In this document: in pieces, positions 25,294-49,766 of the stretch
Layout of the letters: each line of letters starts with the position of its first letter
How positions within the stretch are numbered: position 1 is the stretch's first letter
Assembly (NCBI GenBank): GCA_023920165.1
Contig: CP089275.1
Span: forward strand, 248,001 to 312,000
DNA length: 64,000 nucleotides
Direction of reading: 5' to 3'
Source: Curvularia clavata
Lineage: Eukaryota
Notes under the pieces: generated by a model
Told to the model about the DNA's origin: nothing
Seen by the model: the letters and a program-made list of their open reading frames with translations, nothing else
Databases searched by the model: none
Translations under genes and position numbers: made by a program

Positions 25294-26958
25294 ATGATGG
25301 AACAACAACGTGTGGATGATTGGGAACCTCCGTTATGGAACGAAAATGAAGTTGATCCATCCTGGTTTCAGGAATTCCTAGCTACGGATGTGACGCAGGA
25401 TGCAACTACTACCGCATCCACGTTACCCGCCGCATTCGTCTTCGATACACTGACCAGCGACATCAACTGCGAGGACTTGGATTCCGGAACCGGATCCGTG
25501 CCATCAGGAGCTATTGATTTGACAAGTTTCACATCAGATGCTGTTCTCAGCCAACCGATCGAAAGCCATCACCGACCCCCGGTGCCACGACAACGTACTC
25601 TTCCGCGCCGTCGGAGCAAGTACATGATTCGAAGATCAGTGGGAACATCTAGCCCTATTGCTATACCTGTCAGCAATCCTCAATATGAGTACGAACAAGA
25701 GCAATCTCTTGCGATGCACCGATGGCGGAATTCGCCACCTGAGGACGAGGCAGCATCTTTGACTGCCATATGCAACGCTCTCGACGGCCGAACTCTAGAT
25801 GTCTCCCCCAGAAATAGTCAGCAGTACAGCCGTAATGCTTTTCAAAAGTATCGAGGCCCGTCTTCGACAACCAGTCTTGAAAGTGCTGGCAGCGAATCTT
25901 CGTTACGATCAGGAAATTCTAGCCATTCTGCTACTTCGCAAAAACGTCGTAGTCAAACCAGAACACGTCCTAAAGGGAAAGCCAAAATCAAAAACTCAAA
26001 CGACCCAGAGCGCATATTCAAATGTACTTTCTGTTGCGATACGTTCAAAACCAAGTATGACTGGGCGCGACACGAGAAGTCCTTGCATCTAAACATGGAG
26101 GAGTGGGTATGTACGCCACACGGGGCTTCTGTCGTGCTTCCTCTGACAGGCAGAGTTCATTGTGCCTATTGCAGTGCACTTGATCCTACCCCTAGCCACT
26201 TGCAACAGCATAATCATATGGCTTGTGACAATGGCCGATCTACGCCTCGGATATTTCGCCGAAAGGACCATCTCGTTCAACATCTTCGTCTAGTTCATGG
26301 GTTGGACACACTACCTCTGATAGACGACTGGAAGCTTGATTCAGCTCCAGTCACATCCCGTTGTGGCATCTGTGATATTTCTCTCAGTAGCTGGGATGAA
26401 CGAGCAGACCACTTAACCGCACATTTTCGAGAGGGCAAGACAATGGAGGATTGGAAAGGTGAACATGGCTTCGAGCCTGCCGTTACTGCTCGTGTTGCCA
26501 ACGCATTCCCACCCTATCTTATAGCATCTCAAGCAAAAACGGTCATCCCCTTTTCTGCTACGAATCCAGGGTCAATTGATCACACTAATCAACTCATCTC
26601 ACATCTTCAACTGGAAGAAGCAACTTCGGCACTTCGTACGGAGGACATGCGGGATGAGGACGATCCAACTTTGGACGAGTCATTGGCTGCGCTTCGAACA
26701 TTGTCATTTCAACACAACTATGATTTTGCGAAGGCTCTCACTAGCCATCTTAGCCATTTCGCGAGACAGCAGATGCTCTCAGGAATCATACCCACAGACG
26801 AGATGTTTCAACGGGAGTCACGACGGCTTTTCTATCAAGATGAAGAGGACGGCTGGAACCAGACGATAGCTGATAATCCAAATTGGCTATTGGATTTCCG
26901 TCAGCAAGGTGGTTTTATCGACAGCCAATCAGGCGCCAGCAACTCGCCGGGGCTATGA
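25294..26958 (+). CDS. C2H2 zinc-finger transcription factor-like protein
   Basis: RWRNSPPEDE, FKCTFCCDTFKTKYDWARHEKSLH, CAYC, FRRKDHLVQHLRLVH, SRCGIC...WDERADHLTAHF; intronless. Confidence 0.82.
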   Translation: MMEQQRVDDWEPPLWNENEVDPSWFQEFLATDVTQDATTTASTLPAAFVFDTLTSDINCEDLDSGTGSVPSGAIDLTSFTSDAVLSQPIESHHRPPVPRQRTLPRRRSKYMIRRSVGTSSPIAIPVSNPQYEYEQEQSLAMHRWRNSPPEDEAASLTAICNALDGRTLDVSPRNSQQYSRNAFQKYRGPSSTTSLESAGSESSLRSGNSSHSATSQKRRSQTRTRPKGKAKIKNSNDPERIFKCTFCCDTFKTKYDWARHEKSLHLNMEEWVCTPHGASVVLPLTGRVHCAYCSALDPTPSHLQQHNHMACDNGRSTPRIFRRKDHLVQHLRLVHGLDTLPLIDDWKLDSAPVTSRCGICDISLSSWDERADHLTAHFREGKTMEDWKGEHGFEPAVTARVANAFPPYLIASQAKTVIPFSATNPGSIDHTNQLISHLQLEEATSALRTEDMRDEDDPTLDESLAALRTLSFQHNYDFAKALTSHLSHFARQQMLSGIIPTDEMFQRESRRLFYQDEEDGWNQTIADNPNWLLDFRQQGGFIDSQSGASNSPGL

Positions 26959-27189: not shown

Positions 27190-28200
27190 AACTCGTTCCA
27201 ACATGCAGTTTGTACCTCAATCATCATCGGAGGTTTTAGCCAGAACAAATATGTTTCTTGGTTCATCCAATTATCGCACTTGTTGCTGAGGCGAAATTCG
27301 AAATCCCAGATTGAATAGCTCATAACAAGTCTCATCTCATATTGTACCTAGCTGTAGAATGGTCAATATATTGCAATATTGATAACAAAAGGTGGAAGGA
27401 TCAAGTCGCAATGATTACACTTACTTTCTACCAAGACAAGCGCGTGGACCGACTGAGAGCGGATTGGAAGCTTTCTTGTCATTCCGTTGAAACTCGGTGG
27501 CATCTTCTGGTAAACATCGCTCGGGCACGAATGAGTCCGGCCGCACAAATCTCCGTGAGGAGTGGAGCATGTTCGCCGCAGGTGTTGGCTCCTCCTACAG
27601 GGATTAATCTTACGAGACTCTCGGGCGCGCCTGGATAAACCCTCATGGTCTCGTCTTAGACAGCGCCGAGATACACAAGCTTTGCCAAGGCCGCAAAGGT
27701 CATCTCTTCTTTTGACGTGAAATTTTCGTGGAGTTCTTGCTTCGGCTTTTCCAAGCATCGAGGATTCTTCAGAAGCAAGTATAGCGCTCCCGAGAGCACG
27801 TTTGACGTAGTCTCTGATCCGACGACCACGAAGAGTGCTGCGTTACCGAAAGACGTGCTTTCTTTCCATCGGCTCCACCAGTGATCAGCCCCCAAAGATC
27901 TGGGCGGTCGGTTTTCCTCGCCAACCTTTTTTTCACTTTGTCTTAAGCGAATTTTATATGGGCGTCCTGTTTCGCTTTCATCGACTTTGGTATTGATAGT
28001 GGCACATTCTTCGACGCGAACGGTGTGTAGTAAAGCACCACAATACAAATGGTGTCGTACCGCATGCATCTACGAAGTACCCTACCATCGCTATGGACTT
28101 GGGCAGCTGATCTATTTTCCAGAACCCTGGCTTGGTGGTTCGGAGACTTTGATAGCTCAAGATAATGCGCTATATAAACGGTCCGGCCAGTGTAGATCAC
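27190..28200 (-). pseudogene. Cytochrome P450 pseudogene
   Basis: I-helix VVGSETT; in-frame TAA (27656-27658) immediately before DETMRVYP (ExxR). The heme motif [12 protein letters not shown] (~27425-27462) is in another frame, followed by an intron and MRLVMSYSIWDFE...KPPM. No intact N-terminus seen. Confidence 0.85.
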
Positions 28201-32877: not shown

Positions 32878-35800
32878 ATGTCAAGCCGATCCGGTCAGTT
32901 TGCACCGTCTGTAGCGTTCTTCTGTCCACAGAGCAAGGCTCCGACAGAGGCGTACCTCGCACAACTACAGAAATACATCACACAAAGCCCTCGTCTGCAG
33001 CCTCTTGCAGAAGGCATCACTTCGTTGAAAGAGACGTGGGCCACACTTTGCAATGGCCATACGGACATTGCAAAATTCACAACAGGCAAGCGTCACGTCA
33101 TCAGTTTGGAACAATGGATTACCAATGGAATTGCTGGGCCTGTGTCCAATTCCATGTCTGGGATCCTTGCTTTACCTCTGCTCGTTGTCATCCAGACATG
33201 TCAATACTTCCAGTTGCTGGAGATGCACGACATTACACATTGCCAGGTGCTAGAAAGTCTGAAGAATGGTGGCGGTGCTCAGGGGTACTGCGGGGGTCTC
33301 CCTACAGCATTCGCTATCGCTTGCGCTAAGGACGAAGACCATGTCGTTCGCCTTTCGATTAAGGCTATGCGCATGGCCCTTGCGGTGGGAGCGTTTGGTG
33401 AACTTGGCGACGATGAGTCCATTGCTGGAGCGACAACAATCGCAGTACGATTGAGAGCCTCTCAACAAGGAGACGAGCTTATAAGAGGTATTACTGGAGT
33501 AAGTTCTCTTCTCATTGTTCTCCCTGCGATGCTTCATCTTTTACCGTTTTCTGCGTCCACACGGCCGTAATTCGGTTCGTCATGCGTGTCACCTGTCAGC
33601 ATTTAGCCGCCGGCGCACGCGATAACGGCCTGCTAACATCATCCAGTGTTATATCTCAGCGATAACTGATCCAAGAACTATCAGTATTGTGGGCCCCGTG
33701 CATGAGCTTAAGAAAGTGGCGGACAGAGCACGTGACCAAGGATTGATGGTTACTGATATCCACATCCGTGGGAAAGTACACAATCCGGAAAACGCGCCTT
33801 TAGTCAAGGTGCTCTTTGATCTATGTCAGAAACGTGATGAGATGAGCCTGCCTGACGCCAGTGAGCTGCGAGTTCCAGTGCGATCGAATCTGAACGGAAA
33901 ATTACTGGAAAGCGGTTCGCTAACCTACGAAGCGATAAACACTATCCTTGCCTCTCGCTGCGAGTGGTATCAGCTCTTGAAAGAGGTGGCGCAAGACCTA
34001 TCAAAATGTGATATCGACACTCACTCGTTGGTGTTGTTCGGTATCGGAGATCCTGTTCCTTTGATGCCGTTTCATAATGCTCGTTTGAGAGTATCGAAAG
34101 TGGAAGCTCATGTCGCTATCCAGAATGCCAACTTGGCCGAATACGAGTAGTAAGTTGTTCCAAAAGAATAATAGCATTGGTGTGCTGACATGAATGCTAG
34201 CCCCGAAAATGCCATCGCCATTACTGGAGCTTCATGTCGACTCCCGCGGGCAAACGATCTCGAGGAACTATGGAAACTCCTTGCAGCTGGCATATCGACT
34301 TGCGAAGAAGTGCGTTCCGATAGGGTTCCTTTGCACGAGAGCTTTCGGGCAATGCAGAATGAGAAATGGAAGCCAAAATGGTTCGGGAACTTCATCGATG
34401 GTGCGGATGAATTCGACTGGGCCTTCTTCCGCTCCAATGCCAAAGAGGCGGCCAGCATGGACCCTCAACAGCGCATTCTAATGGAATTGACATACCAAGC
34501 ACTGGACTCGGCCGGCTATCTTCGAAGGCATTATCGCGAAGACGGCGACAAAGTTGGGTGCTTTATTGGGGCAAGCTTCATCGAGTATACGGATAACACC
34601 GGTGCTCACCCGCCAACAGCATATACGGCGACTGGTACCATTCGGGCTTTTTTGTGCGGTAGAATCAGCCATTACTACGGTTGGACTGGACCCGCTGAAG
34701 TGATTGACACTGCCTGTTCGTCTTCACTTGTTGCCATTAACAGAGCCTGCCAATCAATCTGGTCTAACGAGTGTCCAATGGCCGTTGCTGGAGGGGTCAA
34801 TATCATATCTGGCGTTCACAACTACTTGAATCTTGGAAAAGCGGGTTTTCTGAGCCCTACTGGTCAATGCAAGCCATTTGATCAGTCAGCCGATGGATAC
34901 TGTCGTGCGGATGGTGCCGGAGTGGTAGTACTGAAACCCTTAAGGCAGGCTCTGGCGGATGGTGACCAGGTTTTGGCTGTGATACCGGCGTCCTCCACCA
35001 ACCAAGGCGGTTTATCTACAAATTTAACACTTACGCATCCACCAGCCCAAGTCGATCTGTATAGGTCGGTTCTCAAGAACGCCAGGATGAGCCCGGGCCA
35101 TGTTTCATATATCGAAGCGCATGGCACTGGCACAAAACAGGGCGACCCGCTAGAAGTCAGCAGCATTCGAGAAGTGTTTGGTGGGCCAGAGCGTCTAACC
35201 AAGGTATATCTTGGTTCGATCAAAGCCAACACTGGCCATGCAGAATCAGCAGCGGGTGTTGCTGGGCTGTTGAAGGTCATAGCCATGTTGCAGAAGAAAT
35301 CCATCCCGCCACATGCTTTGTTCAACACGTTGAATTCGAATATTCCAGCCTTGGCCCCAGACAGAATAGCAATAGCAAAAACTCTGGAGCGATGGGATGT
35401 CCCATTCAAAGCTGCTTGGGTCAACAATTACGGGGCGGCAGGGAGCAACGCAGCCCTTGTTGTTTGCGAAGGACCTCGAAAGGATGTTGGCAAAGCGTGA
35501 GTAGCAATCAGATGTAGACATGGCAAAACTAACACTCACTAGTAAGCAAAGGCCTGCCGGTATCGTGTACCCGATCATTCTTTCCGCTCTCACTACAGAG
35601 AGCTTGAAGGCTTACGCAAGATCACTAAGACTCTACATGAGCCAGAATGAGCTTGATGTAGCAGATCTTGCTTTTACTCTCTCTGAACGACGGAAGAGAC
35701 ATTCTGTGGCATGGATGACAACTGCCATGGATATCGAAAGCCTAAAACGTGAACTCTCTACGGATATCTCACCCTGCAGCATACCTGCCTCACCTAAAAA

Positions 35801-38800
35801 GGTGGTTCTTGCATTCTCTGGACAAAGTAAGCAGACAATCGGGCTATCAAGATCGCTATACGAGGCCAACCCTAGGCTACAACATTATATTAATGAGTGC
35901 GATCGAATTCTTGAGGCGCTTGGGTTCCCGTCTATCATCCCAAGTATATTTCAGAGCAAGAGCATCGAAGATCCCGTCTTGTTGCAAACAGGTACCATGG
36001 CTGTTCAATACGCAAGCGCCAGGTGCTGGGTCGATGCTGGCGTTCAACCTGCTTGCACGATAGGACACAGTTTTGGAGAGTTGACAGCATTAGCCGTCTC
36101 AGGTGTACTGTCCATTCAAGATGCCCTTCGAGTTGTTGCTACTCGAGCTCAGCTCATGGCAACCAAGTGGGGACCGGAGAAGGGCACCATGCTTGCAATC
36201 TTCGCGCCAGTTGGTGTTGTCAAACACGTCATTGATTTGGTCAAGGATGATACCTTGGAGATTGCTTGTTTCAATGCTTCGAACAATCAGGTCGTTGTTG
36301 GAACCGAGATTGCAGTGATGAACGTGGAGAAGTTGTTAGCACTTGACCCTTCGCTCGATGGGGTCAGAAGCCAAAGGCTTGACGTCACGCACGGATTTCA
36401 CTCCGCTTTTACGGAGCCACTACGAGATGAATTCGCCGAATCATTGAGGCCTTTAGCTTTTAAGACAGCTTCTATCCCGATTGAGCCATGTACAAGGCAA
36501 CGAACCGAAGCAATCACCGCTACGCATGTTGTATCGCATCTCCGAAAGCCGGTTTACTTTATGGACGCGGTCATGCGTATCGAGAAGCGGCTTGGAGATT
36601 GTTTCTGGCTTGAAGCAGGATTCGATTCGCCCATAATTCCGATGATCAAGCGTGCGACTGAAACTCCAGAACGACATTCATTCCGCGCTATCAAAACAAC
36701 CGGAATAGAGCGACCTTCAGAGGCCGTCATTCAAACAGCTATCGATCTATGGAAGGAAGGAATCGATGTTGTGCCGTGGCCTTTTCTGTCACCGTCTGAA
36801 ATCGGTGTGGGAGCGATCTGGCTGCCACCATACCAATTCCAGAAGACGAAAGCCTGGCTAGAGAATATAGACAGAGCTACCGAGATTAAGCGGAATTTCG
36901 CAAAGCTGGACTATCAAAAAGCCGACGTCGCACCTGTGCATCTCCCTATTCGTTTACTACATCATGGTGGATCGAGTGGTGGAAAGGAGAAATTTGCCAT
37001 CAATAATTCCGCAAGTCGTTTCCGAGAGGTCATCAATGGCCATGCGGTCAGAAGCCGACCGCTTTGTCCCGCTTCTATGTACATGGAATGCGTTGCAATG
37101 GCAGCCCATCTTCTTGGTGCAGACTTCAACTCCAGCTCAATGCTGTTTGAAGACCTGTCTTTCGAATCGCCATTGGGCGTGGATCTGAACCGCAAAGTGG
37201 AATTGAGTTTGGAAAATCCGGGCAAAGACAGCTGGAAGTTTGTGCTTTCGAGCTCGCCTGGCTCTACAGAAAGCTCGGGTCGTGTGACCGTCCATGGTAG
37301 AGGCAAGCTGCGTTTGACTGAGCCACGGTTTTCAACATACAAGCGTCTCATAGCCGACCGCTTCAACTCGATCCAATCGAGCCCTACTTCCGAAAAGCTG
37401 AACGGCGGTCGAGCGTATCAACTTTTCTCCAAAGTCGTTGATTATGCTGATTTTTTTCAAGGAATGCAAAGCATTACTATCGACAAGAATGAAGCCCTGG
37501 CTCAAATCCGTATGCCAGACAAACTTATCGGAGGGGACGAAAGCACGGTTAAAAAATACTGCGACACCGTCTCTATTGATGCATTCATTCAGGTGTCCGG
37601 TTTACTCATCAACAGCAGCATGGCGTGCCCTCAAGGCCAAGTTTTCGTCGCCTCAGGATTGGAAAGCATTGCTATGTCCAGACTTTGCGATTTCGACTTG
37701 AATAAGGAATGGGATGTCTATGCAATCTTCTCTCTTATTGATGATGTGCATGCAACAGGCGACGTCTTTGTTCTGACTAAAGACGGCGAGATCGCGATGA
37801 CAGCGGTCGGTGTAGGGTTCCATCGCCTGGAGATAGCGAAGCTCGAACGAACACTTGATGCAGCGAACGGTTCCAATCGCAGTACGAAACTGGCTCAGCC
37901 TCCCGCCTTCAGCCCTACTCCGGCCGAGAGTCTTCCAGAGCTGACATCGGACGACTCTTCGGATTCTTCAAGCGCTTCTTCAGTCATTGAAGACGAACTT
38001 GACGACCGAGAGACTAAATTGAAGGAAATGATATCCACGTACACTGGTGCACCAGGTGATTTCATCTCCTCGGCTACATGCATTGGCGATCTCGGTGTTG
38101 ATTCACTCGCGTCAGTCGAACTCGCTGACGAGATCAACGAGAAATTTGGTACAGCCGTCTCTCCTGACGAAATACTTGCGAAAAGTTTTGGCACCTTGTA
38201 CCAAATGGTGTTCCCTAATGTCACTAAGGTCATCAGGAAGCAACATAACATACGCAAGCCGCAAGCCATAACAGCGGCTCAGTTCGTTGCTCAGACGCCT
38301 GAGCCAGCGCCAGAACCTCATCAAATATCGAAAATGGAGTCCAGTGTAGTCGCCAACAAGTCACATAACGGCGTTCGGAAAGCCAAATTGTTCGAGCTTA
38401 TTTCCGAGTTATGCGGCGTTGATGTAAACCACATTGAAGAACATCAATCTCTGCAAGACCTCGGATTCGATTCGCTTTCGACCACCGAACTCACATCCTG
38501 TTTATCAGATGAGTTCAATGTCATTGTTGACAACAACGACACTATCCTTGACTATTATGTGAAAGACCTAATGGAGAAGGTCGGAATCTCTTCACCAAAA
38601 CTGAGCACTTTTACCCCCAAGCCTTCTCCAACCTCCCTGGCGAACGCTGTACCTGCAAGTGTTCTCGATAAGCCTGCAATCACCACCGACCCATTTCAGT
38701 CTCTGCTAGCATCAGAGTCCTCGCTCCAGGAATTCGCATCTTCTTGTCAATTCACGGGTTATTTGGCCAAAGTTGCTGCTCGTCAAGATGAGCTACTACT

Positions 38801-40919
38801 TGCTTATCTCGTAGAAGGCTTCCAGGAACTGGGAGTTGACCTGAGGGAAATCGAGATTGGTCAAAAGATTCCCGAGATCTCATACCAGACCAGGCACGCG
38901 AAGGTCATGCAGAGGTTTTACGAGATTCTCCAAAAACATGACATTCTGCAAAAGAAAGGTTCCGAATTTGTCCGCTCATCTGGTTCATGTTATTCTGCTC
39001 CTTCTGCTCAGATCCTGCGTAGCCTTGTAGCCGACTTTCCCCAATACAGTTGTGAGGCAGAACTCATGGCTCTCACCGGCGCAAAGCTTGCAGAATGTTT
39101 GACAGGTGTGGAAGACCCTGTCAAACTTTTGTTTGGTACCAGCAAGTCACAAGAGATCATTGGAAACTTCTATACCAAAGCGCCTATGTTTGCCACACTG
39201 ACAGAGCTTCTTGTTGATTTTTTGGTTCGACTAGTCAAGAAAGCCGACGCACCAATGCGTATCCTTGAAGTTGGTGCCGGCATGGGAGGAACCACAAAGC
39301 GACTCGCTGAAGCGCTGAGCCAGCTCAATCACCCCGTCGAGTATGTCTTCACGGATATATCTCAAACCCTTGTTCGAAACGCATCAAAGAGGTTCAGATA
39401 CCCATGGATGCGATTTCAGGCACTAAACTTGGAGGTGCAACCTCCCATTGACATGATTGGCAAATTTGACGTTGTCATCAGTACAAATTGCGTTCATGCG
39501 ACAGCCAATAGAACTGATACCTGCCGTCGCATCAAGCAAATGCTGAATTCAAATGGTCTCATGGTACTCTCAGAGATAACCACCATCTTTGACTGGCATG
39601 AGATTGTTTTCGGCTTGCTAGACGGCTGGTGGTTGGCGAATGATGCCCAGCATGCTATTCAATCAGCAGAAGTTTGGATGAAGTTTATGCATCAGGCTGG
39701 ATTTCCTAGCGCAACGTATTCGCAAAGTCCAATACCAGACTGTAACCTACAGCGATTACTTATAGCGTCCTCAAAACAGTATTCCGAGCCGTCTCGCCGA
39801 ACAGGACTACCACCGAATGGTGTCGAGACAATGATTTACAAATCTGTCGACGGTGTTGAGATAGAAGCTGATGTTTACTTGCCTCAGAAAGCGCCTGCCA
39901 GCTCGATGCCTGTAGGTAATTAAATCTCAATCGCACGCTCTTCTACTCGACTAATGCCACGTAGCATTGATGATTCATGGAGGTGGTCATATGACGTTGT
40001 CACGCAAAGCAGTCAGACCGGAGCAAACAAGATTTTTACTTTCTCATGGCATACTTCCTGTTAGCGTGGACTACCGCTTATGTCCAGAGGTCAACGTCAT
40101 CGAAGGACCAATCTCTGATGTGCTCGATGCGTATTTGTGGATCCAGAGAGAACTTCCGAACATTATTTCAAAATTCGGCATTTCGATTGACACTGCTTCC
40201 ATCGTCTCAATCGGATGGTCCACTGGCGCTCACCTCGCTATGAGTCTTGCTTGGACAACCAGAGAGCTCACTACACCGCCACCAGTGGCTGTATTGGGTT
40301 TCTATGGACCAACTGAGTTTGAATCTGGTGGTACGTGAATTCTTCAGCCTTGTTAAACCCACACACTAGCTCAATTAACTGACAAGTCTTATCAGATCTA
40401 GAACGTCACCAAAGGCAATATCCCGCTCGCCGAATGCGACTGGAGAAGATCATGCAGTGCCTACCCCGTACGCCTGTGACAAACTATGGTGCTATGATGG
40501 ATAGTAGTGAGATGGGCTGGGTGAAGCCTGGAGATCCACGATCAGAGCTCATTTTCGCAATACTTAAGGAAGGCATTGGATTGAATGTGCTTCTCAATGG
40601 TCTTTCTCATGAGTCGTTGAGACAGAAACCTGACCCAGAGCTTGTTAGAGCTATCAGTCCATTAGCGCATGTACGGAACGGTACTTATACTGTTCCTACA
40701 TATATCATACATGGTACGCAAGACGAGATTGTACCATTCAGGACAGCTGAATTATTCATCAAGGAGCTGGAGGAGGCTAAGGTGAAATGTGGGCTTCTGC
40801 GACTTCCGGGGGTCAGGCATATTCACGATTTGCACTTGAAGCCTGGTGACAAGCAGTGGAGAGATCAAGTAGAACCGGGCTACGATTTTCTTTTAGAGGC
40901 CTTGAACGACTCCAAATGA
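32878..40919 (+). CDS. Non-reducing polyketide synthase SAT-KS-AT-PT-ACP-ACP-cMT-esterase (methylorsellinate-synthase type)
   Basis: Six exons (32878-33498, 33647-34149, 34201-35496, 35543-39915, 39965-40330, 40396-40919) join in frame. SAT GYCGG; KS DTACSSS/EAHGTGT/GHAE; AT GHSFG/HGFHS; PT GHAV...DAFIQ; ACPs LGVDSL and LGFDSL; cMT LEVGAGMGG; HSL-type esterase HGGG/GWSTG/HGTQD/HIHD. Confidence 0.95.
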
Positions 40920-41560
40920 GCTATCTTGGTTATGGAAGGCAGCAGTTTTTCTGCGGAGTTACTACCTACCGCTTGTAGTATAGCCAGTCATCCTCTGGGA
41001 TTTAACCACTAGTCTCGAAAGGGATTGCTGATTCTGGCGCAAGCAAGAAGAAGGAGAGGGAGAGAGAAAATCGAGGTGGTACTACATATTATTGAGGCTC
41101 TCCAAAAGCCCTATACTACAAAATTGTTGCAGATGATCTCTTAGATAATTAGTTGGTGGCTTTTTATGCAATTCTGTTCCGATGCTTGGCCCCTAGTGAT
41201 TGCTCGCGTGTGGTCACACAGCATACAAGTCTATCCTGAACTAGTAAAATATCTCTTAATTACCCCACCAACCCGCAGAAAACGGCCTCGTATCTAAGTC
41301 GGTCCGGATATCGATTCTAGTTCCTCCACATGCGAGTCAATCATATCGTTCAGTTTCTCAGATTAGGCCGACCTTGATTGTAACTAAGCTAAAAGCATCG
41401 ATGGAGTCTCATGACTTACGCAACCGGGCCGCAGAAAACACGTATAAATATGAGATTGCTCGAGAAGGCTGACAACAGGTTTCATGTTTTATTGGTGTCC
41501 TGCTCGAAGTATTCTTTTACCATTCATTTTCCAAGATACGGCCTCAGTCATCTCGCCGCA

Positions 41561-44500
41561 ATGGGCAGCTACCCCGAGGACGGAAATCGGACCATTACCC
41601 GAGAAGAAGAAGACACCATCTGGTCATGGAACGCTTGTCTTCCGCCAGCCTCGAATCTTACCATCACTCAACTCTTTTCCAAACAAGCAGATGAATCACC
41701 GGATGCCCCTGCTGTTGACGCCCCCGATGGTATTATAACATATGGGCAACTCGATGCCTACTCTACCCGTCTAGCTCTTCATCTCCGCGCGATGGTTGGC
41801 GATACAACTGGCGATGAGACCGTGCCGATTTGTTTCGATCGGTCCATCTGGTTGGTTATCTGCATGATGGCTGTGTCCAAAGCGGGAATGGGGTTCGCAA
41901 CCTTTGATCCCAGCCATCCAACAGAGCGGTTGCATACGTGTCTGGCAGCAATAAACCCAAGAGCTTTCTTGGTCGAGGAAAAGTTCCGGGACAGGTTTTC
42001 GAATACTGATTTGAACGTCGTATCAAATGTGCCTGAGATATGCAGCGTTCGTGATGGGAAGACGGATACAGCAACCGACCTGCCAGCTGGCCTTCCGAGT
42101 GATCTTTCCTATGTATGTTTCACTTCTGGCTCTACAGGAGAGCCCAAGGTTCTTCAACATACGCAAAGCAGTGCTGTTGCGACTGCTGCCGATGACAAGG
42201 CGTACTCAGTCGGTGCTTGCATTCTCAATGCCGCCTCTCCGGCCTTCCCGGCAAGCATCGTCTTGACTTTGAAGACGATATGCAACGGAGGCTTATTAGT
42301 CTTACCACCAGAACGGGAGCGCATGGGCGGCCTAGCCAATTTCATTACCAAAAAAGGAATCACAAATATGTTTCTTACGCCTACTCAGCTAAATTTGCTG
42401 AAACCAGAAGATGTAGGCTGTTTGAAGTTGTTACTTGTGGGTGGAGAACCCCTGACCCAAAAGCTCATCGACATCTGGGCACCACATTTGACGCTTGCCG
42501 AGGCGTACGGGATGTCTGAGGGTGTAGGCATAGTGAACGAGATCGACAAGAGTGGAATAAAATCTAGATCTCTCCAAGCCATCAGAGGCTGCGCGTGGAT
42601 TGTTGATCCGGACGATATCAATACTCTGATGCCTATTGGGGAAACCGGAGAGTTAGTATTTGAAGGGCATGTACTCTTCAAAGGATATCGAAACAATCCA
42701 GAAACTAATGCCAAATCAATCATCGAGGGGCCTCCAAGCTGGGCGAAGAAGAGAGGTGAGGAGAGGCCAAAGAGGCTGTTTCGAACAGGAGACCTGGCAA
42801 AGTACATTGAGGATGGAGTTGTGCAGATCGTGGGCAGGAAGGATACCCGCGTTAAGTTGCATGGTCAGCGTTTTGAACTTGGTGAGGTGGAAAAGTCCAT
42901 GGTGGGTTTTCTTCCTACTGGAGTAACCGTTGCAGCAGGAATCGTGGAACCAGTGAATGGTTATGGTCCGATGCTCGTGGCCTACATCCACGGTCTGTCA
43001 ACGGACTTCAGCCAAGAGGTAAAACAGCTAAGGGAGAAAATGGCTGCTATACTTCCAGAATACATGGTTCCACGCGGGTTTGTGGAGCTCAAGGATCGGC
43101 CATTGAACCCGTCTGGAAAACTTGATCGGTTACAATTGCGCAAAAGAGCTGCCGAGATGTCATTGGTCGAATTAATCAGGCATACAAGCTCTTCGGAAAA
43201 GACCCTGCCCGTGACAGAGCAAGAAAAGTCAATGCAAAGTCTATGGGCTACCGTTTTGGGACTTCCTATCGATTACATCGGACTGGATGATGACTTTTTT
43301 TATCTTGGAGGGGACTCCCTACAAGCTATGAAGCTCTTTGCAGCCGCGCGAAGAGAGAATATTTTACTCGACATCGAGGATATCTTGAAGCACCGAATCC
43401 TGCGAGCTATGAGTGAAGCCGCTCGATTTGGGTCAGAAGCCGAGTCTATCAAGGTAGAGAACGGACACCAAACATATAAGATAAGCGGAATCACTTCGGA
43501 TATCCCAGAAGAAGATGTTGAAGATGTGGCTCTCGCAACAGATTGGCAGGCTTGGTGTATCGGTCAGGGCCTGCTTCAAGCTCATGGTTGGCACGACTAC
43601 ATGATTCTCAAATTCTCTAAAGACTTCGACGTTGAAAGACTGCAGCATGTCTGTCAGCAACTGTTGGACAGACACGCCATCTTCCGCACTGTATTTTTTG
43701 TCAAAGAAAGAAAGACTTTCCAAGTCGTCTTGAAGCCCAAGGCGTATCCATTTCACTTCCTCATGAAGCAATCAGGCGGCCAAAATGTGGATGAGGTTGT
43801 CAAAGAGACCATTCGTGAAGACATGAGGCGCAACAGGCAACTCGGCGACCCTCTAGTGGCTTTCACTCTGGTCCAGGACTCCAAAAACGCCACAAGTCAA
43901 TTGATATTCAGAATTTCTCACGCCCAATATGACGGCGCCTGCATGGACAAGCTTTGGCGATTCCTTGAGGCTCTGTACTTGGATCAGCCATTGGAGGTTA
44001 TTCCGTTCAAGAAATTCTGTGAAGAAGCCTCCCTAGCGAGCAAGAATTCCGAACCATTTTGGAAAGATGTGTTGGCCAATAGCTCGATGACCGAAGTCAG
44101 GAGTCACACTCGCCCGAGTATCGAATACCCCATCAACAACGCCGCCAAATCATCAATTCCAATGATCGACTTAAAAGTGGCTGGCTTCACTCAAGCGACA
44201 GCCGTGCTTACGTCTTGGTCCATAGTCCTTTCAAAGCTCACTGGTCAAACTTCAGTTGTGTTTGGATACCTCAGTTCTGGAAGAGACTTGCCTATGCCCG
44301 GTGTATCTGATGTTATCGGAGCATGCCTAAACGTCTTGCCTTTGCGCACTGACATTCAATTAACTACACAAACTTCCTCACTTCTCAGCTCTGTGCAGAG
44401 TAATTACCTTAAGGCACTTCAGCACGGTCATCTTGGACATTACCACATCATCGAAAATTGCACGGCATGGCCCCGGTGGACACGCTTCTCGACGATAGTG

Positions 44501-45103
44501 AACCATGTTAGCCTTGGCTCCATCAAACCTCTATTTTCGGGTGTTGGCGAGTGTGCGTTTGAGTACTATGAGCCAGAACACGACAAAGCTGACCTTTGGC
44601 TCCAAACGTTTGTGAGGGGTAATGAGTTAGAAGTGGAACTCAGATACTCGACCAAAGCGTTCTCACATGATTGGGTCAAGGGGGTGCTAGACTATTTCGT
44701 TGGTGTGTACAAGCAGCTGCCCAACATATTGCCGCACCAACTGGAAGAGAAACTTCCACCTTTCAATCTGACTTTGCCTGAAGATGACCTTGTGTCTTCT
44801 CGGCAGTTGAATGGGAAGACCAAGACACCTTCCCTAGATCATCTCGGCAATATTGAAGCCAACGTCCTCTCATGTTGGGAGTCGGTTTTCGGGATTGATG
44901 TCAGGTCGGATGTCAAGTTCTCCCATGACACGCCGTTTTATGAGATATGGGGCAGCGCAATCGCTGCACCTGCGTTAGCGTCTGAATACACGAAGAACGG
45001 TCTTGATATGAGTTGCGAAGAGGTGTATGAGTATCCGTCCATCACCCAGACTATTCCGCATCTAGCAAGACGGATGAATGGAGTTACAAAGGGAGAAAGC
45101 TAG
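41561..45103 (+). CDS. Single-module NRPS-like enzyme A-T-C-(degenerate T)
   Basis: A motifs YVCFTSGSTGEPK, YGMSE, FRTGDL, GRKDTRVKLHGQRFELGEVE, SGKLDR; T domain FFYLGGDSL; C domain RISHAQYDG; C-terminal T-like PFYEIWGSAIAA. Likely start MGSYPED at 41561. Confidence 0.92.
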   Translation: MGSYPEDGNRTITREEEDTIWSWNACLPPASNLTITQLFSKQADESPDAPAVDAPDGIITYGQLDAYSTRLALHLRAMVGDTTGDETVPICFDRSIWLVICMMAVSKAGMGFATFDPSHPTERLHTCLAAINPRAFLVEEKFRDRFSNTDLNVVSNVPEICSVRDGKTDTATDLPAGLPSDLSYVCFTSGSTGEPKVLQHTQSSAVATAADDKAYSVGACILNAASPAFPASIVLTLKTICNGGLLVLPPERERMGGLANFITKKGITNMFLTPTQLNLLKPEDVGCLKLLLVGGEPLTQKLIDIWAPHLTLAEAYGMSEGVGIVNEIDKSGIKSRSLQAIRGCAWIVDPDDINTLMPIGETGELVFEGHVLFKGYRNNPETNAKSIIEGPPSWAKKRGEERPKRLFRTGDLAKYIEDGVVQIVGRKDTRVKLHGQRFELGEVEKSMVGFLPTGVTVAAGIVEPVNGYGPMLVAYIHGLSTDFSQEVKQLREKMAAILPEYMVPRGFVELKDRPLNPSGKLDRLQLRKRAAEMSLVELIRHTSSSEKTLPVTEQEKSMQSLWATVLGLPIDYIGLDDDFFYLGGDSLQAMKLFAAARRENILLDIEDILKHRILRAMSEAARFGSEAESIKVENGHQTYKISGITSDIPEEDVEDVALATDWQAWCIGQGLLQAHGWHDYMILKFSKDFDVERLQHVCQQLLDRHAIFRTVFFVKERKTFQVVLKPKAYPFHFLMKQSGGQNVDEVVKETIREDMRRNRQLGDPLVAFTLVQDSKNATSQLIFRISHAQYDGACMDKLWRFLEALYLDQPLEVIPFKKFCEEASLASKNSEPFWKDVLANSSMTEVRSHTRPSIEYPINNAAKSSIPMIDLKVAGFTQATAVLTSWSIVLSKLTGQTSVVFGYLSSGRDLPMPGVSDVIGACLNVLPLRTDIQLTTQTSSLLSSVQSNYLKALQHGHLGHYHIIENCTAWPRWTRFSTIVNHVSLGSIKPLFSGVGECAFEYYEPEHDKADLWLQTFVRGNELEVELRYSTKAFSHDWVKGVLDYFVGVYKQLPNILPHQLEEKLPPFNLTLPEDDLVSSRQLNGKTKTPSLDHLGNIEANVLSCWESVFGIDVRSDVKFSHDTPFYEIWGSAIAAPALASEYTKNGLDMSCEEVYEYPSITQTIPHLARRMNGVTKGES

Positions 45104-45677
45104 TGGGGTTCTCTACTCGATCGGGCATGGTTACTTATACAGCCACAATGACATATGGTATGGGAGAGTCATTGCTGGTCAAGAAGGGGATAACTTGATG
45201 TTGCAACGAAGTGTAGTGATGCAAATGGTATCGAGTCAGCACCATTTTTACAAGATGTTATTTCTTACGAAATCTGTCAATTTTCACAAGCGTATCTTGA
45301 AGGACTTGCATGATTGCATCATGATCATCAACCGAACAGAACTCAGGCTAGTACTGTGTAAGGGTCAACGGGCGCCCGTCCGAGGGCGCTTACTTTCCTG
45401 TGGGTGATGACTATATGAACCTCAAGTAAAAACGTTTCAACCAAAACATGAGATACGTATGGTCACTTCTGCAGGTGCACTTTGTAACCCAGTAATACTA
45501 CTGGAGATCATATGTTTTTATTATTTTCTGTTTTCCACATCATATGTCCTAAGCGCATTCAAGTTCAATCACCGTGTGTCACTGTATGCTGAGTCTGCGT
45601 GACTACACTTCATTCATTACTCAAAAAAACAGGAATTCAGAATCTTTCAATCATCTAAGCTGGCCATGGCGTTCCTC

Positions 45678-48945: not shown

Positions 48946-49766
48946 ATCTATGACTAGATAGCTTGGGTGAGAGCGGGAGAACGGGTCGCATCAGTCACTG
49001 AGAGCTGGAATTCGGGCAGGTTTGGTCAGCGAGTGAATTTGCAATTGAACTATCCGAATCACCATTTTCCCACATTTTTCCGAATTACACGTTGAAAGGA
49101 CCCAAATCTTAATTTGGAGACGCGGCCGAGAAGCCTTCAAAGCAGGTTTTGGGGTCATTGTGAGAAGGTTCGGGTTAGCTAGAATGTCGTGATGAACGTG
49201 CGTGTTTGCGAACAACCTTGGTCTACGTGGAGGTCCATCAATCGGACGATCGCCACGTATCGATATTTCGGATGTTTCACCAACTTCCGGTTGTTGTAAG
49301 TGCTTACAATGATCAGCTCTTATCTTTTAGTGCCTTCGTTCATTGCTCAGCGTTTAGATACCCATGTGAACTACACATGACCGGTTTGTCCGGAACCAAC
49401 AGTTACATTGCATTAGTTAGTTTTATGACCAAGGATTTGAGCTTTACTATAATGCAAGGCATACCTCAGTGTGATAGCGTGCATACACGGCAAAACCTAG
49501 GCGGCATGCAAGGTGATTACAAGTGAAGGTCCCACATGGTGAACCAGCTCGCTAGGTTACGCTAACTCCTCCTCATCGTCTTCACATGCCCAGAATGGCA
49601 ACTGAAGAGTGAACTTCGGCATGTACACTGAGGATTAGCAACGGGGGGAAAGAATACATAAGATGTGGTTGTTGCCTCCAATGTTCGACATCAGCTCACC
49701 AGCTCTTCTCATCAGTCCTCTTCCACTTCCAACCCAACTCTCCAGCTCCATCAACTCCTATTCAAG

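Follow-up and report, generated by a model that had tools for sequence, protein, structure and literature searches.

A window of 64,000 nucleotides of Curvularia clavata (assembly GCA_023920165.1, contig CP089275.1, positions 248,001 to 312,000 of the forward strand) contains a gene for a single-module nonribosomal peptide synthetase (NRPS) whose adenylation (A) domain has proline in place of the aspartate that binds the substrate alpha-amino group (Asp235 of GrsA). Very probably, this enzyme is orthologous to NdsB of Parastagonospora nodorum and has the same function as DrcB, i.e., a single-module depside-amino acid ligase that works with the polyketide synthase encoded directly upstream. This assignment draws on orthology (64% identity, the same architecture, and the same gene neighbor) together with the logic of the missing aspartate. 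An earlier note on this DNA, made from the letters alone, had proposed from the A4 motif that the enzyme activates a non-amino acid; published experiments on the ortholog NdsB, taken with the missing aspartate, point to the same conclusion. The gene and its parts are as follows:

41561 to 45103, plus strand: NdsB-type monomodular NRPS, A-T-C(CT)-Ti, 1180 aa, no intron (open reading frame, Pfam)
41675 to 43195, plus strand: A domain, A1 region through A10 (Pfam AMP-binding; PDB matches LgrA, TycA, and GrsA)
42242 to 42256, plus strand: A4 motif A-F-P-A-S, with Pro for the alpha-amino-binding Asp235 (translation, alignment)
43304 to 43321, plus strand: thiolation (T) domain core LGGDSL, phosphopantetheine Ser at 43316-43318 (Pfam, alignment)
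43520 to 44719, plus strand: terminal condensation-like (CT-type) domain (Pfam Condensation; match to TqaA CT)
44852 to 45052, plus strand: inactive carrier-like domain, Ti (hhalign against the enzyme's own T domain)

The translation of 42221-42271 is ILNAASPAFPASIVLTL, in which the A4 motif reads A-F-P-A-S at 42242-42256 (codons gcc ttc ccg at 42242-42250) rather than FDxS. When the A3-A5 surroundings were compared with all PDB chains by phmmer, 'ASPAFPASI' of the query aligned with 'ASMSFDVSV' of TycA. Because SFDVSV pairs with AFPASI with no gap around the motif, the proline codon CCG at 42248-42250, residue 230 of the 1180-aa protein, occupies the Asp235-equivalent site of the A domain, and no aspartate is found there. 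Contigs from two separate public studies (X1, record 6; X5, record 20) show no differing letter in A4, so the proline codon is backed by both; the site lies outside the coverage of runs X12 and X9. The other core motifs were each located in the translation: A3 (FTSGSTGEPK, 42119-42148), A5 (AYGMSEG, 42503-42523), A7 (FRTGDLA, 42779-42799), A8 (GRKDTRVKLHGQRFELGEVE, 42833-42892), and A10 (NPSGKLD), whose lysine (Lys517) is encoded at 43118-43120. The domain therefore retains the A3, A5, A7, and A8 cores and Lys517 of an amino-acid-activating A domain, with Pro at the position of the FDxS aspartate. On both counts, i.e., the altered A4 and the integrity of the remaining A motifs and of the T-domain serine, the earlier description was accurate.

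To place this substitution, we read the ten Stachelhaus columns in a single alignment of 164 A domains, which were extracted from 119 of the 120 proteins of the homology search with a profile of the A-domain portion of 13 aligned relatives. As a control on the columns, bacterial domains of the alignment gave DAWTIAAVCK, DAFWLGGTFK, and DFWNIGMHVK, which we take to be the canonical codes for Phe, Val, and Thr, respectively. The specificity code that the earlier note had asked for, read from these validated columns, is P-A-V-F-L-G-A-G-I-K (PAVFLGAGIK); most orthologs have AAVFTGAGIK. Across the 164 domains, column 235 holds Asp in 131, Ala in 19, Gly in five, Ile in five, Ser in three, and Pro in one. 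All 22 members of the query clade lack Asp235 (17 Ala, four Gly, and the single Pro of the window protein) and none has an acidic residue there, whereas Asp235 is present in 131 of the 142 domains outside the clade. A FastTree phylogeny of the same alignment groups the 22 domains as monophyletic (support 0.999) and nests them among Asp-bearing fungal domains. These patterns mark the loss of Asp235 as an old, fixed feature of the family rather than a product of chance, and Pro235 as a local change at a site that already tolerates Ala or Gly. A domains without an equivalent of Asp235 are described as activating aryl, keto, or hydroxy acids (bioRxiv 10.1101/559534). The window code has Gly at 301, Ala at 322, and Gly at 330; these residues would leave a wide pocket, which may suit a large substrate. 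Another Pleosporales NRPS in the set, P0038 of Pyrenophora teres (1381 aa, C-A-T-C), also lacks Asp235; it lies outside the NdsB clade, and its code AGVFCGTGIK equals the NdsB-family code at seven of ten positions.

The architecture downstream of the A domain matches that of an NdsB-type enzyme. Pfam detected AMP-binding, PP-binding, and Condensation domains in the NRPS, and the phosphopantetheine serine of the T domain (Ser586) is invariant in all 13 aligned sequences. The condensation (C) domain carries the motif S-H-A-Q-Y-D-G at 43916-43936, with its histidine at 43919-43921. Its best solved match is the CT domain of TqaA (5dlk, E 7e-30), whereas no canonical C domain does better than 9e-18, and SHSQWDG of TqaA pairs with SHAQYDG of the window enzyme; by sequence, it is a condensation domain of the fungal terminal type. 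Aligned by hhalign with the enzyme's own T domain, the last ~100 residues matched with a probability of 81% (E 1.2e-5), IWGSAI pairing with LGGDSL. Because W-G-S-A (44948-44959) replaces GGDS in this alignment, with Ala at the pantetheinyl Ser site, the tail is a Ti domain without the pantetheinyl serine; the residue at this position varies among orthologs. The domain order is therefore A, T, terminal condensation-like, and a carrier-like domain of ~100 residues without the conserved serine. A carboxylate reductase of the A-T-R (adenylation-thiolation-reductase) type does not fit, since Pfam gives Condensation and no NAD-binding or reductase domain. The start Met at 41561 is matched, at or near, by the starts of the 13 aligned relatives. 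An in-frame ATG also occurs at 41411 with no stop up to 41561 and would lengthen the NRPS by 50 residues; it falls within the RNA, since the X1 contig begins at 41368, and the orthologs begin at the 41561 Met.

The NRPS gene lies directly downstream of, and on the same strand as, a gene for a polyketide synthase of the non-reducing type (NR-PKS) with an alpha/beta-hydrolase-type TE domain:

32878 to 40919, plus strand: NdsA-type NR-PKS, SAT-KS-AT-PT-ACP-ACP-CMeT-TE, intact, spliced (Pfam on open reading frame pieces, tblastn, contig joints)

By tblastn, this PKS is collinear with the P. nodorum protein P0122 (2576 aa) across residues 1-2575, and the 90% cluster of P0122 contains SNOG_07020. 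The tandem ACP, CMeT, and TE domains are those of an NdsA-type neighbor. The pairing of the two genes is conserved. We assembled seven metagenome loci with NRPS orthologs (52-69% identity) as a local BLAST database, and in all three that reach more than 1 kb upstream (L002, L005, and L004) the NRPS gene is immediately preceded, in the same orientation, by the 3' part of the same PKS. Comparison of the window with these loci by tblastx found no flanking synteny beyond the two genes. The neighbors of the pair in the window are of the housekeeping kind, namely TruB, a RecQ-type helicase, a histidine kinase, and Rad4; downstream in locus L001 are an MFS transporter and housekeeping genes. No fused PKS-NRPS occurred among the 120 best longer proteins, which reached at most 34% identity and had no KS Pfam domain; this is weak evidence against a fused form.

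Both genes are transcribed. X1 contigs skip four GT..AG intervals in the PKS (33877/33933, 35496/35543, 39911/39965, and 40329/40395), and so stem from spliced RNA; one of the four joints also occurs in X5. A separate X1 contig (record 6, 3981 nt) spans 41368-45200 with no joint, and X5 record 20 spans 41500-43617. With the NRPS on its own contiguous X1 contig, the PKS and NRPS are separate transcripts. In the X1 contig that bears the spliced 3' end of the PKS, 40650-40700 and 40899-40969 are skipped as well. Both intervals have CT..AC ends (equivalent to GT..AG on the minus strand); the first falls within the exon coding for the TE and the second across the stop codon of the PKS, and an X5 contig reads through the first. 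A spliced transcript antisense to the 3' end of the PKS, merged by strand-blind assembly, could account for these skips.

The orthology of the pair was traced through P. nodorum. A database protein of 1180 aa (P0002) is identical to the window NRPS. Protein P0012 is 64% identical to it over 99% of the length. Apart from one Clathrospora protein, the 90% cluster to which P0012 belongs consists solely of P. nodorum proteins, strain SN15 being among those represented. The locus tags in this cluster adjoin those of the PKS cluster holding SNOG_07020, and the tail of P0012 reads WGNG, as published for NdsB (PMC12536308). Based on this identity, tail motif, and tag adjacency, together with the support of the A-domain clade, the window genes are orthologs of NdsA and NdsB (about 69% and 64% identity, respectively) in another Pleosporales-like fungus. 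SNOG_09488/09490 was also considered as the counterpart pair and was rejected as a different pair, of a highly reducing PKS and an NRPS (PMC4205913).

The P. nodorum genes SNOG_07020 (SAT-KS-AT-PT-ACP-ACP-CM-TE) and SNOG_07021 (A-T-C) were uncharacterized in a 2014 survey (PMC4205913) and were named NdsA and NdsB in Chem Sci in 2025 (PMC12536308). In that work, NdsA alone gave the didepside CJ-20,557 (3-methylorsellinate esterified to 3,5-dimethylorsellinate) along with monomers and two other depsides, and NdsA with NdsB gave duricamidepside, in which the depside carboxyl is amidated with L-threonine. Free CJ-20,557 fed to a strain with ndsB only was converted to the L-threonine amide; an inactive T domain (Ti, WGNG) follows the C domain of NdsB, and deletion of Ti abolished amidation (PMC12536308). 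DrcB is likewise an A-T-CT enzyme that forms a depside-threonine amide (PMC10720950).

These experiments bear on whether the A domain might instead load an amino acid, e.g., L-threonine, in an unusual way, with the C domain joining it to a depside still held on the PKS carrier. There are precedents, since the fungal A-T-C enzymes AneB and ThmA load an amino acid and leave the choice of partner to the C domain (PMC10720950), and rare amino-acid-like substrates are described for domains without Asp235 in a preprint on ATRR enzymes (bioRxiv 10.1101/559534). The absence of an acidic residue at 235 throughout the clade argues against this arrangement, as does the window code, which has little but the final Lys in common with the Thr-type DFWNIGMHVK. 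Moreover, free depside was amidated by ndsB alone with no PKS present (PMC12536308), a result that requires carboxyl activation by NdsB itself. We consider loading of an amino acid extremely improbable. The family-wide absence of Asp235 instead provides sequence-level support for the A domains of NdsB and DrcB loading the depside and not threonine.

A four-step route can be proposed for the window pair on the model of these relatives. First, the upstream NR-PKS would build a methylated orsellinate didepside and release it as the free acid. Second, the A domain, with a pocket lacking Asp235 and a small, hydrophobic lining (P/A-A-V-F-L/T-G-A-G-I-K), would adenylate the aryl carboxylate and load it onto the T-domain pantetheine. 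Third, the CT-type domain would release the acyl group onto the attacking amine of a free amino acid, which is L-threonine in both characterized relatives, NdsB and DrcB (PMC12536308, PMC10720950). Fourth, the C-terminal inactive carrier-like domain would be needed for the release step, as it is in NdsB. The missing aspartate fits the published model, in which the A domain binds the aryl carboxylate made by the neighboring PKS rather than an alpha-amino acid, and by analogy the window enzyme is expected to act as NdsB does, on depside acid and L-threonine. The earlier note had named the adjacent PKS's methylorsellinate as the acid and a peptide as a possible acceptor of the aroyl group. In its main lines the earlier inference holds, since a non-amino acid as substrate, the PKS as its source, and the need for an external nucleophile all agree with what is described for NdsB; the monomer does not, a didepside being the most likely substrate given that NdsB loads one, and neither does the peptide, given that the product of NdsB is an amide of free L-threonine.

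Loading of a monomer (3-methylorsellinic acid, 5-methylorsellinic acid, or dimethylorsellinic acid), with transfer by the C domain to an external nucleophile, nevertheless deserves consideration. NdsA also releases 3-methylorsellinic and dimethylorsellinic acid in a heterologous host (PMC12536308), fungal A-T-R enzymes encoded beside NR-PKSs adenylate orsellinic, methylorsellinic, and dimethylorsellinic acids (PMC9605436), and the code of the window enzyme departs from that of NdsB at two positions. On the other side, the combination of NdsA and NdsB gave depside amides only (compounds 2 and 11), with no monomer amide mentioned in the excerpted report (PMC12536308), and the small residues at 301, 322, and 330 would better suit a large substrate. 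We regard monomer loading as unlikely.

Several points weigh against a full functional equivalence with NdsB. Of the ten code positions of the window enzyme, two are changed relative to NdsB (235, Ala to Pro; 299, Thr to Leu), and its 64% identity falls below the >70% given for other dothideomycete orthologs (PMC12536308); with both differences, the acyl or amine specificity could have drifted. Depside adenylation by NdsB is itself termed 'proposed' from in vivo feeding (PMC12536308); in the main text of that paper the word 'adenylation' occurs once and the term 'A domain' does not occur. Finally, the partner cytochrome P450 is decayed in this genome, so the end product of the pathway cannot equal that of the published cluster:

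27204 to 28083, minus strand: decayed cytochrome P450 in the ndsC position (Pfam p450, tblastn)

This remnant lies about 4.7 kb upstream of the PKS. Pfam p450 covers profile positions 270-327 and 369-414 and no others, and tblastn with the nearest relatives placed the pieces in frames -2, -1, -2, and -3, i.e., with two frame breaks. Two in-frame stops, one of them the TAA at 27656-27658, fall within otherwise gapless alignments, one junction lacks ~12 residues, and the same search gave no match for the N-terminal half. In a comparison with 1.8 billion representatives, Alternaria panax G6011_05741 (60% identity) ranks second and is the nearest named relative; its tag adjoins that of the NdsA ortholog G6011_05742, and because of this adjacency, the remnant is most likely a decayed ndsC. 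A. panax G6011_05741 (P0388) is only 141 aa, and the gene in the ndsC position may be truncated or mis-modelled there too. NdsC carries out benzylic hydroxylation leading to methylene-bridged dimers (PMC12536308). With only a remnant of the P450 beside the PKS in the window, the predicted end products in this genome are depsides and their amides, without methylene-bridged dimers.

The pseudogene also raises the question of whether Pro235 marks the NRPS itself as a decaying, inactive copy. Proline at 235 is unique to one of the 22 clade members, in line with a decayed neighbor. Decay is nonetheless hard to reconcile with a frame that is open over 1180 codons with all core motifs intact, with the tolerance of Ala or Gly at 235 in the family, with a PKS collinear with its ortholog over 2575 residues, and with the presence of both genes in RNA-derived contigs; we therefore think it very unlikely. 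There is somewhat more room, though still limited, for the diverged pair (Pro235, Leu299, 64% identity, P450 lost) to make a conjugate other than duricamidepside, whether from another depside or monomer acyl group or with another amine. The assignment as an NdsB-type depside-amino acid ligase remains our preferred one.

Two other reading frames in the window were recorded. Beside the P450 remnant, 25294-26958 (plus strand) is a 554-aa open reading frame with no Pfam match and with C2H2 zinc-finger-like stretches (e.g., FKCTFCCDTFKTKYDWARHEKSLH), which may encode a transcription factor. At 49665-50435 (plus strand), a 256-aa open reading frame has a weak Pfam match to Viral_Rep (E 4.6e-5) that, at 24 bits, stays below the cut-off of 26.

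The absence of Asp235, read from raw sequence, correctly foretold the chemistry of this family, in which the aroyl group made by the neighboring PKS is loaded and passed to an external amine. Since the family has been characterized experimentally, in 2022 and 2025, published work on the ortholog already explains the result, which amounts to correct annotation and not to a discovery; the window can be annotated as an nds-type depside-amide cassette. Two modest points are added. The lack of any acidic residue at position 235 in the 22 clade members backs the depside-loading model of NdsB and DrcB from sequence alone. In addition, decay in this genome has affected the P450 but neither the PKS nor the NRPS, both intact and transcribed, which predicts amidated depsides without the bridged dimers.

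Among known systems, NdsB (SNOG_07021 / JI435_070210, P. nodorum) is the closest. The two enzymes share the A-T-C-Ti architecture, 64% identity, an NdsA-type NR-PKS directly upstream, the absence of Asp at 235 (Ala in NdsB), the CT-type SHAQYD motif, and eight of ten code positions. They differ in Pro versus Ala at 235, Leu versus Thr at 299, WGSA versus WGNG in Ti, and the decay of ndsC in the window. DrcB (Aspergillus duricaulis), work attributed to Chen, Wei, and Matsuda (JACS 2022), has in common the single A-T-CT module and a degenerate Ti (WGDL), and it amidates the same depside as NdsB with L-threonine; it is only 32% identical to NdsB, and its cluster is described as having no P450 (PMC12536308). 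DrcB was not identified by name among the matches of the homology search. The fungal carboxylate reductases of clade VI (among them AtCAR/ATEG_03630, PnlA, and StbB) adenylate the orsellinate-type acids of a neighboring NR-PKS and so provide a precedent for adenylation of such acids (PMC9605436); in contrast to the window enzyme, they are A-T-R proteins of another A-domain lineage that release their product reductively as an aldehyde rather than through a condensation domain.

For the C domain, the TqaA CT structures (PDB 5dlk, 5egf, and 5ejd) are the best solved match and share the S-H-x-x-x-D-G motif; TqaA cyclizes a tripeptide intramolecularly, whereas the window enzyme would, by orthology, catalyze an intermolecular amidation. 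The A-T-C enzyme that N-cinnamoylates hancockiamide, work attributed to Li et al. in 2021 in PMC10720950 and PMC9146134, reportedly follows a similar logic, loading a non-amino aryl/alkenyl acid that its C domain transfers to a free amine; it is said to belong to another clade, to use another acid, and to have neither a Ti domain nor a PKS partner. An A-T-C protein of A. hancockii (P0063) among our matches has Ile at 235 and falls in a clade separate from that of the window protein. Finally, GrsA PheA and TycA share with the window A domain the fold and the core motifs A3-A10 (alignment E 1e-45 to 5e-52), but they bind an alpha-amino acid through Asp235 of FDxS, where the window enzyme reads F-P-A-S.

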